Shown in pieces: positions 19,489 through 61,793 of a DNA stretch of 64,000 nt. The stretch is from positions 17,360,001 through 17,424,000 of the forward strand of contig OZ024746.1 of assembly GCA_964016885.1 (NCBI GenBank), read 5' to 3'. The notes beneath the pieces were generated by a model. The model saw nothing but the letters and a program-made list of their open reading frames with translations. It was not told the origin of the DNA and ran no database searches. Source of the DNA: Eledone cirrhosa. Its lineage: Eukaryota. A program made the translations under genes and the position numbers. Each line of letters opens with the position of its first letter. Positions within the stretch are counted from its first letter, which is position 1.

Positions 19489-19950
19489 GGAAACTAACTA
19501 AACCCAAATCCAAGAAACATTATTTAACAATAATTATAACCATTATTATGCATAACTGTAAAAATTTATACTAATAAAGCTAAAATAATAATGATGATAA
19601 TAATAATAATAGTAATAATAATTTTTTTTAATTTCTGAGTAGAAACCTAAGATACTTGCATATAACAAACATACACACAAGATGGCTGCAAAGTCACGCA
19701 GAGTATTGCAATCACTTGTCAGATTCAGATGTGGCTTTTCAGATGTGGCTCGGATATGGCTTTTCAAGCCTGCTAGAGACTTACACATTGATGACAACTA
19801 TATATATATATATATATATATATATGTAGGAGGTGAGTTTTATTGTAGTACAATAAAGCAATGCAGATATCGGATAAGAAGCACTCTACAGTTTGTAGGA
19901 CTGGAGTATACATAATATAAGATCAAAAGATGGTTAAAGGAGTTCCATGT

Positions 19951-20019
19951 ATTTTATTATGCGCATTTCAAAAACAAACATCATCATGCAATAATATTTG
20001 TGTTTTCATCAGATAAAAC
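19951..20019 (-). ncRNA. Minimal hammerhead (mirror copy with C3U on + at 20154-20222)
   Basis: TTTTAT-CTGATGA-stem II-GAAA-TGCGCA-TA-ATAAAA. Confidence 0.72.
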
Positions 20020-20253
20020 AGGAGAACATGATATGAAGGCTAAAGAACACTTGTGGATAGTGCAGTTTTAAATCAACATATATATCAACAGATATGTTGA
20101 TTTAAAACTGCACTATCCACAAGTGTTCTTTAGCCTTCATATCATGTTCTCCTGTTTTATTTGATGAAAACACAAATATTATTGCATGATGATGTTTGTT
20201 TTTGAAATGCGCATAATAAAATACATGGAACTCCTTTAACCATCTTTTGATCT

Positions 20254-20284
<31 letters not shown>

Positions 20285-31270: not shown

Positions 31271-31353
31271 CTAAAGACAAATAAAAATAAGCATTACCAG
31301 TAATGCACTGGGTAATTACTGGCCTTGTGCCAAAAGTAGAAACAATTATATAT

Positions 31354-32730
31354 ATGGGTGGATGTTGTTTACCTTGACTTTGCTAAGGCTTTTAATTCTG
31401 TGCCACACAAAAGACTTATGGCAAAACTCTCTGCAATGGGTGTGAGGGATGATCTTTTCGACTGGTTGAAATCCTTCATTCTCAGCCGAAAAGAAGTAGT
31501 CACGGTTCTAGGACAGCATTCTTCACCATATGAGATGTCATCTGGTGTACCACAGGGATCTGTTCTTGGTCCTCTTTTGTTTGTGGCATATATTAATGAC
31601 ATAGATGCCAACTTACAGAATGCCACGGTACTAAAATATGCAGATGACATCAAGCTGTACCTTGAAATCAAAAGGACTGATCCTGAAATTTACAACTCTT
31701 TCCTACAATCAGACCTGGACACAATGCAGCAATGGATCACAGACTGGCAACTGAAGCTGGCTGTGGACAAGTGTACCACCATGCATTTTGGAAGGAAAAA
31801 TCCAGCGTCCACATACTCCCTCCACAACACTGATATCAAAAAGTCCTCTTGTGAACGTGACCTGGGCATTACTGTCAGCAACGATTTGCGTTGGACAAGG
31901 CATGTCTCTAAGATTGTCAAAAAGGCCGAGGGTGTCTTGGCATCACTCAGCAAGACCTTTGTTAGCCGCTCTCCAGCCATCTATTTAAAACTGTATACAG
32001 CTATGGTGCGACCACACTTGGAATTCGCATCATCAGTCTGGAACCCCTATCTTGCTCAGAACATTGACCTCCTGGAAACTGTTCAGAGACGTGCAACCAA
32101 GCGCATACCCTCCATCAGACACCTACCATACTCTGAACGCCTTGCTTCCCTGGGCATGGATTCATTGAAGCTCCGACGTCTGGCAATGGACTTGGTGAAT
32201 ACCCACAAAGTTTTTAACCATCTCGCCAATTGCAACCCTGAGCGCCTCTTTGATCTCCATGTGTCTAACACACATGGACATGCCTACAAGATCAGAAAAC
32301 AGCACAGCTCCCATGACTTTCGTAGACATTTTTTCACGCTCAGAGTTGCTGAAGCATGGAACAAACTGCCTGCGTCAATTGTTAGCTACCGAGAAACTGC
32401 ATCCTTTAAGACACTCATGCTTCCCGAAATACGCCAAAACTACACCTGATGTACCCCTTCCATACACATGCACACATGTGTGTATCATGACTCGTGCACT
32501 GTTCATTTTACGGATGTTTGTGCATTGCCCTATGTACTGTACATGCACTTTTTTTGATGAGTTGTGGTGCACCTGGGCACTGTACACAATATTTCATTAT
32601 TGTTATTATTATTATATCATGACTCATACACTGTTCATTTTCCTGACATTTGTACATTATTCTATGTACTATACATGCACCTTTGATGAGTTGTAGTGCA
32701 CCTGAGCACTGTACACAATAATTTCATTAT
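31354..32730 (+). mobile_element. CR1-like LINE, 5'-truncated copy (RT + 3' UTR)
   Basis: 363-aa ORF differing at 7 residues from the 58931-60022 ORF. Confidence 0.93.
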
Positions 32731-33699: not shown

Positions 33700-35420
33700 G
33701 GAAAACAAAACAAAGGTAGAAGGGTTACTGTAGTGGAGATTTAATCCCAATATTTCGGGCTCACGCCCATCAACGGGGGAAAGTTCTAAAAGGGGGGGAA
33801 CAGGCTAAGCCGGAGAAAGTTGTATTGTCGTTAAAACATAGGAGTGCCGTTATGGGGAAAATTCAAACGAGGGAAAGAATGCGCGTGCGCGTGATAGGCT
33901 GTGGCAAAAGCTACTGACCAATTGGGTTAAATCAATAGGGTGCGCTAGCGTGTGAAAGCCGTAAAATATGTGTGTGTAAATATATATGTGTGTGTAACTG
34001 TGTGTGTATATGTGTATGTGTGTATGTATGTGAGTGTGTGTGTGTGAAAGATAGTGGGCCGTAGAAGCTGGAATTCAAAGGGTGTGAAAGGTGGTAGGTT
34101 GTATAAACATGTGTGCGTGTATAAATATAGATGTGTGTGTGTGTGTATGTGTATGGGTATACATATAAGTGCGTGTGTGTGAAAGATAATAGGCCGTAGG
34201 GGCTGTTACTGGTCACTATGGTTAAATTAGCCATGTCAGCTCATTTCTTTCAGCCCGGTTGTTAAGTGGGGGTCTGAGGTTCTTAATAACAAGTGCTTCC
34301 TTTATCCTTAAGGATCCGATGCTGCGTTCAGTCGCTAGGACTGTGACCAAGGGTCTGCCCTGTGGGTTTCCGCATTTAAGGATGTGTTTACGGAAGGAAG
34401 ATGCGTTGGTGTTGACATGTTCCTTGATACGAACATGTAGGGTCGGATGGTGCTACCTATGTAAAACTTGTTACATTTATCGCATTGAATCTTATATACG
34501 ACATAGGTGCGTAGGCAATCTTCCCCCCGTATCGGGCAGTTGCTGAGGGAACACGTCCCATCTGACTCGTCGGGTTTGTTGGAGAGGCATCTTCGGAGCG
34601 AAGGTCCTGTGTGGGCCAAATGTATGTTAAGTCCCTCCCTCCGTATGGCCCTGCGGATGGCGTTCGTGGTATATTCACTCAGGTGGGGGATTTTAAAGAA
34701 GCACCTGCTTTTATCTAAGTTTCTAGTGGGTGTCTGTCTATTGGGTCTGGGGTCTCTAATTCCGTTAATCAGTCGCTTGGGATATCCATTAGACTTGAGT
34801 AGATTACGGAATTGCGTGGTGTGGGTGAGACCACCCATCGGGTCGCTGCATCTATTAGTGATCCGTGTAAGTTCATTTAGGACATAGCCTCTCTTAGCGT
34901 TGTTGGGGAGGGCTGAGTTGTAATGCACAAATAAGTCCTTGCACGCTGCCTTGCGGTAGAAGGTGGTGTTTATGTCTCCTTCTTCCGAGATGTTGATACG
35001 GAAGTCGAGGAGGGCGAGCGACCCGTCTTCTTCAGGGTGTTCGATGGTGAAATCGACGTGATGGTCAGTGTCGTTAAAGATTTGGTGAATTTCATTCGCC
35101 ATCTCCCGGGAAGAAGTGAGTATCAGTATGTCATCAACGTATCTGGAGTAGAAGGCGACGGCGTTGGGTTGGCAGGTGTTGAGTGCCTTGCGTTCCAGGT
35201 GGTCCATGTACGAGATCGCAAGTATACCGGACAGACTAGATCCCATAGGTAGCCCAGAGATCTGTTTGTACGTGTGGCCGAGGAAATTGAAGAATGCATT
35301 ATCCACAACGAAGGAGAGGAGTTGGTGGATATCCGTGTGTGTGAGTCCGAAGCAGTGTAAGTTAGATGCTCGGACTCGTTCGGTCAACAGGTCGACGGCT
35401 GGGGATGCTGGTACGGAGGT
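33700..35420 (-). mobile_element. Penelope-like element, 5'-truncated (RT + GIY-YIG), frameshifted near 34440
   Basis: GLPMGSSLS, RYVDD, LLDF, VVYKIQCDKCNKFYIGST. Confidence 0.9.
33745..33780 (-). ncRNA. Degenerate hammerhead at the 3' end of the Penelope element
   Basis: TCCC-CCGTTGA-tGGGC gtga GCCC-GAAA-TA-TT-GGGA. Confidence 0.55.
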
Positions 35421-36213
35421 ATAATTTTATAATTGTTGCATTAAATATAACCAGTTTTGATTAATATAAAAATGTTATCAAATATTAGATGCTAAATATA
35501 GAATATTTTAAAACAATGTTTTTCATATGTTCTGTGATCAATCAGTAACAAGTGTTTTAACCCTTTAATGTTCAAACTGGCCAAAACCGGCCAGAATTCT
35601 CTACCTCTTTCTGTTGAAACTGGCTGTAACTGGTCGCTCAAACTGATATTGTTCTCAAAATAAATACTTTCAAAATCTCATAGATTCGATATTATGTGAG
35701 ATAATTATGTGAGGTAAAGCCTTTACCATGAAAATATAATAGTATATATAGAGTAACACTCCATACCCTTTGCAGACTCTATTTAACCCTTTTGTTATGA
35801 TATTTCTAATGAAAATTACTGCGTATAATTTTCAAATAATCAAGAATTTGAAAAGATTTAGCAGTATAACTAACTTCCACATTATTAAGCTGGTATTTGG
35901 AACATAGCTTAACAAAAGTTCTTAAATAAAATTATTATCAAAGGGTTTTAGATAAATATAAACACTTTAACCCTTTCATTACCATATTTGGACACTACCT
36001 GTGGTTTTTAAATAGTTTTGAAAGTAATCAAGAATTTGGAGAGGTTTAGTAATATATCTAACTTTCTCATTATTAGGCTGGTGTTCGGAACAAAGGTTCT
36101 TATAGAAAATTATCATGGAAGGTTTTCAGATAAATATAAACATTTTAAAACAAAGTATTGTATCATAGAAGTAGGGTCAGTTTTGGATAGTTTGGTTAAG
36201 GTAGACATGTTAC

Positions 36214-46497: not shown

Positions 46498-46557
46498 GTA
46501 CATATGTATGTGTGTAAATACTATAAATATTAAAAGAAAAAGTCATGTATAACATAC

Positions 46558-46697
46558 CTCAAATACAGTAATAGCAAATGGAAATAAGATGAATGCTCGA
46601 CTTCTAAGAATAAGGATACGTTGGCCTCCATTGAGATTGGAGCTTTCAATTTGTCTCAACTTAGCATCAATCCAGTATAGCCTTTGATTTTCATAAT
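46558..46697 (-). CDS. YWTD beta-propeller exon 4
   Basis: YENQRLYWIDAKLRQIESSNLNGGQR...FPFAITVFE. Confidence 0.92.
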
Positions 46698-46947
46698 CTG
46701 TTAAATAGACATAGGAAATTTAAATGTCTGTATTATATAGATTTATTAGATAAACAGTGAAGATATATATATATATATATATAAATTAATATGTAAGTGA
46801 TGAAACACAGATACCAACATATCTGTATATATATTGCAAAAGAAAAATTTAGCCAGAATGAAGTATACTAATTATTATACTACAGTTTGTCCATATCGAT
46901 TTAAAATAATAAATCAACGGAGACGAACTGTATTGGCAAAAGGCCGT

Positions 46948-47075
46948 GATGTTTAGACACATTTAAATTTCAAAATCAAACCTGTTCCGTAGATAAGTTT
47001 AGACTTTAAGATCCAAATATGTTTCGAGTTAAATAAGTGTAGGAATATCATGTCCCGCTCTCCTCAGTAAACATC
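46948..47075 (-). ncRNA. Type I hammerhead ribozyme, canonical core, long stem III
   Basis: GATGTTTA-CTGAGGA-gag..ctc-GAAA-CATATTTGGAT..ATTTAAATGTG-TC-TAAACATC. Confidence 0.75.
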
Positions 47076-47278
47076 CAGAGACAAATTGATATGCTTCACT
47101 TCTAAATGATTTAAAAGACTGCGTGACGCACATGGCTTTACAGTATCTAACTAGTCTCATAACCGTACTGCTAGAAATAACAGTCGTATATATGAGATGG
47201 TTTGCAGCTCAAACTAGGAGCAGTTAAAATTAATAAGGTATTACCTTATTAATATATATATATATATGATATATATAT

Positions 47279-48108
47279 GATTCCGTCAGGGAAATGGCCA
47301 TGTTCGATATGCAGAAAAGGAACTGGCATAAATTCTATAAAATGCACACAATGTAGGTCCTGGGTACACAAGAGATGTAGCGGGATAGCAGGCAAACTAA
47401 CAGGTAGGGAGAAATATGTATGCAGTAGATGTACAGGGAAATTAGACAGTAGAAGTCGCACTGATAGACACATTTTTCAAATGCGAGAGGGCGCTATAGA
47501 AGTGGTGGATAGCTTCCGGTACCTAGGAGATCAGATTAGCATGGGAGGAGGGTGTTCCGAGGCCATAGTATCTAGAATAAGGACGGGTTGGAAGAAGTTT
47601 AGGGAGCTGCTTCCTCTGTTGACGAAGAAGGGTTTCTCCCTGCGTACGAAAGGCCGGTTGTATGATGCCTGTGTGAGGAGCGCGATGCTGCATGGTAGTG
47701 AGACATGGGCAGCTACCGCAGAAGATATGCGACGGCTGGAGAGAAATGAGGCAAGCATGCTCCGTTGGATGTGCAGTGTAAATGTGCGTGAACGACCCAG
47801 CATAAATGTGTTGAGAGAGAAACTGTGTCTGAGAGGGATAGAATGTAGTGTACGGGAGAGGAGACTGAGGTGGTATGGACATGTGATGCGCATGGAGGAT
47901 GACCGATGGGTGAAGAAGTGCCAGGAAATGCCAGTTGAAGGAAGACGTAGTAGAGGTAGACCACGAAAAACATGGGCGGAGGTGGTGAGAACAGACCTCA
48001 GATCATTGAAGCTCACGGTGGAGATGACGAGGGACCGTGACGAGTGGAGAGATGCTGTGCTGAATAAGACCCGTCCCACCCTTGCAAGCAGGGAAAAGCG
48101 GACGTAAA

Positions 48109-48140
<32 letters not shown>
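47279..48140 (+). mobile_element. RTE-like LINE 3' fragment with PHD finger, (ATG)n tail
   Basis: CSIC..CTQC..WVHKRC..CSRC, then FRYLG, YDACVRSAMLHGSETW, RRLRWYGHV, RGRPRKTW. Confidence 0.88.
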
Positions 48141-48429
48141 ATATATATATAATCCTGAGCAAGACAACCAATCTTGCCTCAAGTGGGACAATTCCCGTCC
48201 AGACCCATGCTAGCGTGGAAAATGGACGTTAAACGATGATGATGATGATGATGATGATATATATATACAGTGAAAATAGATTTATAGAGACAATGAAAAA
48301 AATATATATATATATATGCATGTATCATCATTATCGTTTACCGTCCATCTTCCATGCTAGCATGGGTTGGACGGGTTTGTCCCACTTGAGGCAAGATTGG
48401 TCGGGTGACCATGTCTTGCTCGTACAGAA

Positions 48430-48478
<49 letters not shown>

Positions 48479-48601
48479 TGAAGATAAATATATATAGTGA
48501 GTGAATATAAACTAGATTTATATAAATTGTATAGCCAAAATAGATTTCTATAGATAGTGAAGGTAAGATAGAAAATAAAGATACAAGAAATATATATTTA
48601 C

Positions 48602-48717
48602 CTATTGTTATACCATTAGGCCACTGGACATTTACAACAATTTTTCGACAATATTTTCCATTCATGCCACACATTTCAATTGCCGCTGGATGACCCCAAT
48701 CAGTCCAGTAGAACCAA
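48602..48717 (-). CDS. YWTD beta-propeller exon 3
   Basis: [20 protein letters not shown]...VQWPNGITI. Confidence 0.93.
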
Positions 48718-58639: not shown

Positions 58640-61590
58640 ATAATAATAATGAAATTATTGTGTACAGTGCTCAGGTGCACTACAACTCATCAAAGGTGCA
58701 TGTATAGTACATAGAATAATGTACAAATGTCAGGAAAATGAACAGTGTATGAGTCATGATATAATAATAACAATAACAATAATAATGAAATATTGTGTAC
58801 AGTGCTCAGGTGCACTACAACTCATCAAAAAGTGCATGTACAGTACATAGGGCAATGCACAAACATCAGGAAAATGAACAGTGCACGAGTCATGATACAC
58901 ACATGTGTGCATGTGTATGGAAGGGGTACATCAGGTGTAGTTTTGGCGTATTTCGGGAAGCATGAGTGTCTTAAAGGATGCAGTGTCTCGGGAGCTAACA
59001 ACTGACGCAGGCAGTTTGTTCCATGCTTCAGCAACTCTGAGCGTGAAAAAATGTCTGCGAAAGTCATGGGAGCTGTGCTGTTTTCTTATCTTGTAGGCAT
59101 GTCCACGTGTGTTAGACACATGGAGATCAAAGAGGCGCTCAGGGTTGCAGTTGGCGAGATGGTTAAAAACTTTGTGGGTATTCACCAAGTCCATTGCCAG
59201 ACGTCGGAGCTTCAATGAATCCATGCCCAGGGAAGCAAGGCGTTCAGAGTATGGTAGGTGTCTGATGGAGGGTATGCGCTTGGTTGCACGTCTCTGAACA
59301 GTTTCCAGGAGGTCAATGTTCCGAGCAAGATAGGGGTTCCAGACTGATGATGCGAATTCCAAGTGTGGTCGCACCATAGCTGTATACAGTTTTAAATAGA
59401 TGGCTGGAGAGCGGCTAACAAAGGTCTTGCTGAGTGATGCCAAGACACCCTCGGCCTTCTTGACAATCTTAGAGACATGCTTTGTCCAACGCAAATCGTT
59501 GCTGACAGTAATGCCCAGGTCACGTTCACAAGAGGACTTCTTGATATCAGTGTTGTGGAGGGAGTATGTGGACGCTGGATTTTTCCTTCCAAAATGCATG
59601 GTGGTACACTTGTCCACAGCCAGCTTCAGTTGCCAGTCTGTGATCCATTGCTGCATTGTGTCCAGGTCTGATTGTAGGAAAGAGTTGTCAATTTCAGGAT
59701 CAGTCCTTTTGATTTCAAGGTACAGCTTGATGTCATCTGCATATTTTAGTACCGTGGCATTCTGTAAGTTGGCATCTATGTCATTAATATATGCCACAAA
59801 CAAAAGAGGACCAAGAACAGATCCCTGTGGTACACCAGATGACATCTCATATGGTGAAGAATGCTGTCCTAGAACCGTGACTACTTCCTTTCGGCTGAGA
59901 ATGAAGGATTTCAGCCAGTCGAAAAGATCATCCCTCACACCCATTGCAGAGAGTTTTGCCATAAGTCTTTTGTGTGGCACAGAATTAAAAGCCTTAGCAA
60001 AGTCAAGGTAAACAACATCCACCCATGAGCCGCTGTCAGTGATCCGGGTGATGTCCTCAAGGAACTCGATAAGCTGATCACAGCAGCTGGAGTTAGGGAT
60101 AAATCCAAACTGTGAGGGCCGGATGAGGCTGTGAGAGCTCCAGAAGTTTCAAAGTGTTTCTCTGACACAGGATTCCATTAGTTTGGCCATACAGCTAGTA
60201 AGACTGACTGGACGATAGTTGACAGGTGACATGCGGTTGCCCTTTTTGAACAGGGGAATGACACTGGCAGTTTTCCACTGCTCCAGAGTAGCACCATTGC
60301 TGAGACAGTATTGAAAGAAAAAAGAAAGCTGGCGCAAAAGGAAATCCCCGCCACGTTTGAGAAGCAGGTATGTCACACGATCAAGACCAGGGGAGGCATA
60401 GTTGCGCTTATTCTTAAGGTGACGTCGCAACATTGCAGGTGTAAATTCCATAGTTGTTATGGAATTTGATGTTAGAGATGGTGGAGATGGTACATTCTGG
60501 TTTTCAACAGTAAAAATACTTGCATAGCACTCAGCAATGAGTTCTGCGCATTCCTTGGGATCGTCAGTGATCTGGCTTGTGTGGGGATTGCGAAGAGGAC
60601 CAACTGGAGAGTGAGGTCTCTGCTTTGAATGAACATATTTCCAGAACACCTTACTGTCAGGATTGGTTGCGATGCACTGTTCAAATTCAAGCACTGCCTT
60701 CTTTGTCACTTGCTTGAGATGGTTAGAAGATTTATTCCGCTTTTTTCTGTTGGCATCTGATCTATGCAGTTTATATTCCCGTTCAGCGTTCCGACGTTCT
60801 TTCCTGGCAAGTCGGACCGCTGAAGTTTCCCAGATTGCACTTTTGGGGTGGTTATTTTTCCGCTTCCGTGGCACTGATGCTGCACACGCTATCCATATTG
60901 AGTCCAGGATGCTCTGGAGTATAGAGTTCACATCTCCAGAGTTATACATCTCATGCCAGTTTGGGCGCTGTAGCTCAGTGCAGTACAAGTTCCAATCCGC
61001 CCTCTTCCAATCAAAGCAAGCAGATTGGAGATGGCTCTGGTTTTTGTTGCTGCCCTCAAGTGCCAGATTGGCAATGATCATAGCATGATCAGAGTCGCCT
61101 AGAGGTTCCTCAGTAGTACAACTGATAACCACTTCAGGAGTAGTGGTGAAGATCAGGTCCAAAGTGTTGTCACCTCTTGTTGGAGAGGTGACTACTTGTG
61201 ACCAGTTTGAGTCCAGCACTAGTTCAAGGAAATCGTTTGCACCCTGTGGCCAACGAAAGGTTTCCCAATCGATCTCAGGATGATTGAAGTCACCTGCAAT
61301 AAACACATAAGTGGCTGTTTTCTTGGCAGCAACTCTGAGGATATCGCAAAGCTGTGTGTCCTGATGGTAGTTTGGGGGGCGATAAACAACACCAAGCAGA
61401 AGTGTTGACATGGTCATACGTATGTCACAGAAAAAAACTTCTTCCTGTGATTCGTTCAAATCAACGCAAGGAATTACCGAAAAGTTTGAACGAACGTAGA
61501 CCATCACACCACCACCACGGCGGTTAATGCGGTCCTTGCGGAAAAGGTTGTACCCAGTAATGGTGAAAACCCCATCACAGAGTAAGGAAT
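58640..61590 (-). mobile_element. CR1-like LINE, 5'-truncated ORF2 (APE endonuclease + RT) with 3' UTR
   Basis: GDFN and SDH endonuclease motifs, YRPVSLT, LDFAKAF, PQGSVLGP, YADD; one in-frame TGA at 60149-60151 separates the two listed ORFs; (ATT)n tail. Confidence 0.93.
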
Positions 61591-61793
61591 ATTGATCTTA
61601 TTAGATAAAAATAATTTTGATCTTATTAGAACCTTGGTTATTTATTGTTTTTTTTTTATTTTTTATCAGGTTATAAGATATACCCAGTGTTTGTTTTTGT
61701 TATTTTTCAAAGATAAATATCAATATTGGTATTAATTAGATATTAAACTAAACTAAATTATGTGTGTGCGTGTATATATATATATATATATAT

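Follow-up and report, generated by a model that had tools for sequence, protein, structure and literature searches.

The hammerhead ribozyme motif on the minus strand at 46948-47075 of the window (the whole stretch of 64,000 nucleotides that was analysed) belongs to a 5'-truncated copy of a non-coding repeat present in hundreds of copies. This repeat is very probably a young non-LTR retrozyme, the self-cleaved and circularised RNA of which would be copied into (TA)n sites by the reverse transcriptase (RT) and endonuclease of a Penelope-like element (PLE), and the intron of a receptor gene would have received a truncated copy by chance. The features to which the text refers are the following.

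46948..47075, minus: type I hammerhead, with an 8-bp stem I, the core, a 3-bp stem II with a 29-nt loop, and a long stem III
47029..47057, minus: loop II, 29 nt, the 5' part of which is the partner of the 5' flank
47078..47099, minus: 5' flank with complementarity to loop II, for which a pseudoknot or an alternative hairpin is predicted
47170..47194, minus: 25-nt box, nearly invariant in three families, outside the ribozyme, capping a hairpin
46780..47240, minus: main arm of the 5'-truncated retrozyme copy, 461 of 518 bp, ending at the family's fixed 3' end
47241..47253, plus: inverted 13-nt stub of the second fixed end (~+247), adjoining the main arm at its 5' end
47254..47279, no strand: (TA)n-rich run at the upstream insertion end (from the sequence)
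46763..46781, no strand: (TA)n run at the downstream insertion end (from the sequence)
46558..46697, minus: downstream host exon, LDL-receptor class B (YWTD) repeat, PF00058, E 3.3e-08
48602..48717, minus: upstream host exon, LDL-receptor class B repeat, PF00058, E 3e-09

The hammerhead motif and the intron that carries it

The motif is a canonical type I hammerhead, with the coordinates and anatomy that the first-pass annotation had claimed for it. On the minus strand, stem I comprises 8 bp (47075-47068 with 46955-46948), the core CUGAGGA lies at 47067-47061 and GAAA at 47025-47022, stem II is a helix of 3 bp closing the 29-nt loop, and a GUC triplet predicts a cut between 46956 and 46955; the CUGANGA, GAAA and NUH elements of type I are thus all present, with helix I open. 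Stem III has 12 contiguous base pairs at its foot and ~26 overall, in keeping with its earlier description as very long. A strict descriptor of the motif matches once in the window and in none of 200 Markov-resampled windows, the fold of a 146-nt stretch reaches -34.5 kcal/mol (z -3.07; 0 of 200 shuffles equally stable), and RNAalifold, given 20 relatives, yields the three-way junction unaided. Rfam, which the annotation had proposed as a check, did not report the motif: hammerhead families are absent among the 150 matches listed of 168 for the whole window, and among the 4 matches at E up to 10 for the 351 bp at 46850-47200, probably because the long loop II and stem III exceed its models.

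The host intron spans 46698-48601 and the motif stands 258 nt before the acceptor at 46698. Since the flanking exons are mutually in frame and both match Pfam Ldl_recept_b, the hammerhead is intronic and in sense, as had been proposed from its position about 250 nt from the acceptor. The matches of one exon place the gene in the LDL-receptor family, while the narrower VLDLR/LRP8-like label was not confirmed. Among the contig joints listed (15 of 101, from four contig sets, with records broken at TA runs), none skips the insertion, which weighs neither for nor against an empty site. In contigs of run X4 (organism B) compared with window positions 46548-47149, the retrozyme matches at 97-98% (5 differences in 151 positions and 2 in 120), at low depth, and the host exon at just 86% (22 differences in 156), a mismatch for which horizontal transfer, contamination or a paralogous exon are possible explanations. 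The same intron also holds, directly upstream of the retrozyme, a high-copy retroelement-like frame at 47253-48107 (plus strand) with a PHD-like Pfam match and very high contig depth, which we take to be RTE-like.

Because the copy is shorter than one unit and carries one ribozyme, unit-length RNA cannot be released from the window copy alone; an active ribozyme in it would sever the host intron a single time at most, which splicing would likely tolerate. Introns cut by a hammerhead were still spliced in vivo, whereas a faster ribozyme blocked splicing, in work reported second-hand in PMC2995048. According to a preprint (bioRxiv 10.64898/2026.07.22.740005), ~42-44% of the retrozyme copies in Xenopus overlap introns, which are depleted in them compared with intergenic DNA, and by these figures a retrozyme copy in an intron is ordinary.

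A 518-bp repeat and its insertion anatomy

The hammerhead lies centrally in a 461-bp stretch (46780-47240) that is a copy of a non-coding repeat unit of 518 bp. In other copies, 57 nt that are absent from the window copy link the end of the unit to its start, and the permuted tandem unit has no body between terminal repeats. In five units from three families, designated A, B and C, GC content is 29-33% and no ATG-initiated ORF is longer than 71 aa; the reading frame with RT and GIY-YIG that marks an autonomous PLE is absent, and the unit has the non-coding nature and the GC content under 45-50% that are expected of retrozymes. The annotation's hint at a retrozyme-like element is therefore borne out, as a multi-copy 518-nt non-coding unit that occurs in arrays and in hundreds of copies. 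The direct repeats from which that hint was drawn (46918-46930 and 47076-47088) do exist, with 10 of 13 letters in common, but they lie inside the unit and are not monomer ends, and the 158-nt monomer that they implied is rejected, the unit being 518 nt.

An exact pattern of the core has 338 matches in the genome against 0 for the reversed control, and sister subfamilies contribute 150 more (2 in the control). When the genome was searched with 231 bases of the window copy, at least 41 full-length matches at 99-100% were obtained, the window's own included, with 40 scored of 1312 candidates, and the same 231 bases are found unaltered at other loci. The annotation had held that many decayed copies with no syntenic conservation would speak against domestication of the ribozyme; the genome-wide copy number, in the hundreds, supplies the multi-copy half of that outcome. 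Over its whole 461 bp the main arm is 99.3% identical to copies on other contigs (L003, L004 and L010), so the copy is young and without change of its own, and since the ribozyme together with 60 nt of flank is letter-identical at four further fetched loci, the window copy bears no mark of selection.

Head-to-tail arrays are represented by nine matches spaced exactly 518 bp on C2, by L105 with its 17 or more complete units at 96-98%, and by more than 40 units of a sister subfamily at ~85% in L101-L103. Such arrays can also grow by DNA recombination, which counts against an RNA route as the sole reading of them. In a contig set whose flanks are exactly those of the window, summed depth is ~7 on the unique flank and lies between thousands and tens of thousands across the element, the latter being a depth and not a copy number. 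Two consecutive hammerheads, by which the preprint recognises an active copy, occur at other loci; the window copy, with its one ribozyme, is monomer offspring.

Outside the ribozyme, the role of the 25-nt box can be guessed at as a promoter or an RT recognition site. The box has 129 further matches in the genome with another next base, and 0 in the control; the first 100 listed of these are nearly all of family C type, and among 30 box loci that were fetched there is one PLE protein match (L159). The shared stem III pattern gave no exact match in metagenome or viral contigs.

The ends of the copies were compared at 19 loci (L001-L020 minus the duplicate L011), comprising 29 segments. Relative to the cut site, the 3' end lies at +175/176 in 13 of the 29 segments, at +243 to +253 in 15 and elsewhere in one, so that there are two fixed 3' ends ~70 nt apart, and the 5' ends are scattered. 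Nine of the 19 loci are inverted, with arms whose length varies between copies, and in eight of these nine each arm uses a different fixed end; TA runs are present on both sides at 15 loci. A segment of at least 551 nt is found at 11 of the 19, and copies of up to 892 nt run on into the next unit, not into an ORF. The main arm of the window copy stops at the family's fixed end, 175-176 nt past the cut site. Truncation at the 5' end, an inverted arm, a one-sided tail and a microsatellite target are thus all found here, and PLEs have been described as forming partial tandems and an inverted copy truncated at its 5' end, with a tail on one side and a preference for microsatellites (PMC8557442). 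The AU-rich nature of the two fixed ends points to base pairing with a nicked (TA)n target as the means of priming, and copies longer than one unit would need a circular or an uncut multimeric template; as the main arms had to span the ribozyme in order to be chosen, reading-through of the cut site is partly built into the sample.

PLEs occur in the same genome, with reading frames of 938-1096 aa that have the CxxxxCxxC linker of the Neptune type (linker as defined in PMC8557442). The sample consisted of 50 loci fetched of 150 scored GIY-YIG places (10596 candidates), and in these 50 loci BLAST and profile searches found no sequence in common with the unit except neighbouring retrozyme copies, so that the partner can be inferred and not named, a point against the proposed mobilisation. 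PLE protein matches are present in 7 of 135 retrozyme loci, and retrozyme matches in 6 of the 50 PLE loci. At L023, L048, L069 and L114, retrozyme copies abut the 3' end of one Neptune-like family with a TA run between the two, which in the first three was read by eye; this adjacency may reflect a shared target, or it may be a pointer to the partner.

Several hammerhead repeat families coexist in the genome. Near TA-rich runs, a long palindrome at 19913-20260 of the window (arms of ~170 bp) contains a second and unrelated family, at 20020-19950 on the minus strand, with an 8-bp stem I, a long stem II region and a tiny palindromic stem III; its motif also occurs in L056 and L068, and the palindrome looks like another inverted PLE-type insertion. 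A third family, in L053 (minus, near 812) and L054 (plus, near 2884), has a stem III of ~75 nt in a TA-flanked repeat of unrelated sequence without the flank/loop II pairing that is described below, and a fourth is present in L058. Reading by eye of L021-L044 showed, 3' of the frame in one Neptune-like family, a hammerhead-like motif of minimal size whose stem III is palindromic and whose core is U3/A8, as in retrozyme family C. Elsewhere in the window there is a PLE-like frame fragment at 34335-35426 (minus), with an RT match (PF00078, E 1.2e-10) and, by eye, a GIY-YIG-like motif, and two near-identical LINE-like RT frames, also noted by eye, lie at 31340-32449 (plus) and 58931-61597 (minus), the latter with an endonuclease-like frame upstream.

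Selection on the fold and pairing of the flank with loop II

Families B and C, with 75-80% identity to A, came to light next to PLE loci, and further copies of them were obtained by search. Covariation was assessed in an alignment of 20 representatives chosen from 119 distinct motifs. Both sides have changed in 5 of the 8 pairs of stem I, with 0 broken, and in 2 of the 3 pairs of stem II, one of them being U-U in the four family B rows; stem III shows one-sided variation only, with no double changes. The real alignment is 94% paired against 20-49% for slid controls, the count of doubly changed pairs is matched by 46 of 500 shuffles, and the covariation represents a few events on a tree of three related families. 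A core pair varies between families as well, being C3/G8 in 105 of 106 copies of family A and 21 of 21 of family B, and U3/A8 in 28 of 29 of family C; the change from C3-G8 to U3-A8 is a known hammerhead covariation, reported for Schistosoma PLE hammerheads (PMC4209133). The three helices around the core are maintained by compensatory change, and for stem II the support is covariation, not energy.

The boundaries 46948-47075 given in the first-pass annotation leave out the 5' flank at 47078-47099, which pairs with loop II in all three families, and an RNA of 46948-47075 alone is for that reason incomplete. In the window copy, 47078-47083 pairs with 47056-47051, 47087-47092 with 47050-47045 and 47095-47099 with 47039-47035, the pairing beginning right after stem II and stopping 2 nt before stem I. 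The duplex has an energy of -17.2 kcal/mol, against -8.3 kcal/mol for shuffles, and at most 10 of 300 shuffles are as good in 19 of 20 rows. Flanks of families B and C reach -16.1 and -17.7 kcal/mol with their own loops and -4.9 to -7.9 kcal/mol with family A loops, whereas family A flanks are less selective (-12.1 to -18.0 kcal/mol with the loops of the other families). In 94 of 116 distinct copies the cognate flank outscores each of 30 other windows taken from that copy, and in the middle helix of the pairing 2 of 5 aligned pairs have changed on both sides. In three unrelated hammerhead families of the genome the pairing is absent (84, 174 and 232 of 300 shuffles as good), and it is therefore specific to this superfamily.

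The near 12 bp of the predicted pairing could be compatible with stems I and II, in the form of a pseudoknot; with full pairing, only 6 nt of the window copy would remain for closing stem II, and on geometric grounds the fully paired form would be an alternative state. It has been predicted that ~40% of natural hammerheads use a pseudoknot, and the human C10orf118 ribozyme needs one of 5 bp at 0.5 mM Mg (PMC3088659). A doubtful extension of this is a two-state hammerhead: the near half of the pairing would act as an activating pseudoknot, the complete pairing would switch the ribozyme off, and in this way the moment of cutting would be set in the course of transcription and the circle, once made, would be shielded.

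As a retrozyme, the element would be mobilised as follows. Its arrays would be transcribed, and the hammerhead of each unit would cut after GUC to give unit-length RNA, which would be ligated to a circle; either this or an uncut multimer would serve as the template, so that copies pass the cut site and often exceed one unit. A PLE of the Neptune type would nick (TA)n DNA and prime at one of two AU-rich points of the RNA, ~70 nt apart, and such priming would leave the fixed 3' ends and the one-sided tail. Within the ribozyme, the near part of the pairing between flank and loop II would form a pseudoknot that is stacked on the short stem II and replaces the usual loop-loop contact, and the full-length pairing would be an off state, with too few bases left for stem II.

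Alternative readings and known relatives

Single-sequence folding gives stem II a probability of 0.0 in all constructs tried, and still 0.0 when the strands of the pseudoknot are kept out of the folding; that of stem I drops from 1.0 to 0.02-0.41 after the natural flanks are added, and the natural unit folded as a circle forms neither stem I nor stem II. Pseudoknot-free folding thus gives no support to the active fold in context, which counts against the retrozyme reading as set out above and speaks for a version in which the element is the same, the hammerhead is silent or very slow as an intronic monomer, the flank and loop II form an off-state hairpin, and cutting occurs in arrays or with a helper. 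The 6 nt that full pairing leaves for closing stem II in the window copy also speak for this version, which contests the pseudoknot step alone and not the identity of the element. It is possible but somewhat unlikely, given that pseudoknots and tertiary pairs of the core are outside the scoring of ViennaRNA, and that the geometry of the pairing, which adjoins stem II and stops 2 nt short of stem I, is that of an activating pseudoknot, of a kind that raises the rates of bacterial and human C10orf118 hammerheads (PMC3088659). Against the retrozyme reading itself stands the result that, of nine Xenopus retrozyme dimers tested, only one cleaved (bioRxiv 10.64898/2026.07.22.740005).

The other alternatives concern the identity of the element. 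Were the repeat the terminal repeat (pLTR) of an autonomous PLE, and the copies its 5'-truncated ends, the insertion anatomy would be of the PLE type, as it is, and retrozyme copies would stand near PLE frames, as in 6 of the 50 PLE loci, a sample drawn from 150 scored (10596 candidate) GIY-YIG places; this is nevertheless very unlikely, since end and start of the unit meet at 518 nt and enclose no frame, the copies of up to 892 nt enter the next unit and not an ORF, and a TA run separates the two elements at L023, L048 and L069. Domestication, which the annotation had raised as a possibility, would make the motif a regulator of the splicing or level of the LDL-receptor-family pre-mRNA, like the hammerheads of amniote RECK and C10orf118. 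The sense orientation, the intact core and the 258 nt to the acceptor would suit such a role, and the amniote intronic hammerheads are themselves thought to be derived from retroelements (PMC6155905). A domesticated ribozyme should be rare in the genome and old, however, and this one, with its 60 nt of flank, recurs letter for letter at the four other fetched loci; with the 231 bases unchanged elsewhere and a family of hundreds of copies, a locus-specific role is most improbable, and the element most likely came to lie in the receptor gene recently and by accident. A satellite or DNA-mobilised repeat with a fossil hammerhead, spreading without an RNA step, would account for the long head-to-tail arrays, and the inverted arms may resemble terminal inverted repeats. 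Little probability can be given to this reading, because 5' ends are variable and 3' ends fixed in the sense of the ribozyme, inverted arms are of unequal length between copies, and compensatory change in helices and core between families that are 75-80% identical needs selection on RNA.

The preferred reading, a young retrozyme mobilised by a PLE, can be compared with several known systems. The animal non-LTR retrozymes described by Cervera and de la Pena (2020, PMC7229834) from mussel, coral and axolotl likewise have a type I hammerhead per unit and a low-GC non-coding tandem repeat that ranges from monomers to large multimers, with PLEs in the same genome. The present unit is longer (518-560 nt against ~170-400 nt), stem III has ~26 bp where theirs is usually short, and the 29-nt loop II paired with the 5' flank sets the family apart as far as the article text goes, the mussel and coral ribozyme drawings lying outside this comparison; RNA and circles have been demonstrated for those retrozymes, whereas the family here is known from DNA; among the RNA data sets consulted none was listed as containing it, which weighs neither way. 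At the family level the repeat thus has the testable features of a non-LTR retrozyme, with a larger unit, a long stem III and a distinctive flank/loop II pairing. Retrozymes treated in the preprint cited above as non-autonomous PLE derivatives also comprise dispersed monomers and arrays, and the unit length falls within their range of 51-972 bp. Its argument, mostly from vertebrates, is based on co-occurrence and pLTR homology; here the insertion marks of the copies are of the PLE type, and 50 PLE loci (of 10596 candidates) showed no pLTR homology.

With EN+ PLEs of the Neptune clade (PMC8557442) the family shares partial tandems, an inverted 5'-truncated arm, a one-ended tail, insertion into (TA)n and a hammerhead in the repeat; unlike them, it has no reading frame, and its tail, at ~70 nt, is longer than the 30-40 bp reported for theirs. 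In metazoan PLEs the hammerhead is usually of the minimal sort, in which stem III is palindromic (PMC4209133), unlike the long stem III here, and a large helix III has been reported in fungal and protist PLEs. The RECK and C10orf118 hammerheads of amniotes (PMC3088659, PMC6155905) are also of type I and intronic, but they are rare and conserved in mammals (RECK also in birds), whereas here a young copy stands among hundreds; the C10orf118 pseudoknot has 5 bp and is needed at low Mg (PMC3088659), against a predicted pairing of at least 12 bp here. No description of the family, or of a pseudoknotted retrozyme hammerhead, was found in the article texts consulted, and the terms ribozyme, retrozyme and hammerhead do not appear in the main text of a 2026 Octopus repeat annotation (PMC13282606), which is relevant only if the host is an octopus.

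The mobilisation of animal retrozymes has so far been argued from co-occurrence and repeat homology, to which the insertion marks described here are added, with candidate enzymes in the same genome. Very young copies that carry PLE-type marks and two fixed priming points make the PLE model testable in one genome, and the architecture itself, a 29-nt loop II paired to the 5' flank together with a long stem III, is one that Rfam missed and of which natural compensatory variants exist. If the two-state reading is true, the staggered ends would be a direct record of a Penelope-like enzyme priming on circular RNA, and hundreds of young copies, some of them intronic and in sense, would be a live source of timed cuts in pre-mRNA.
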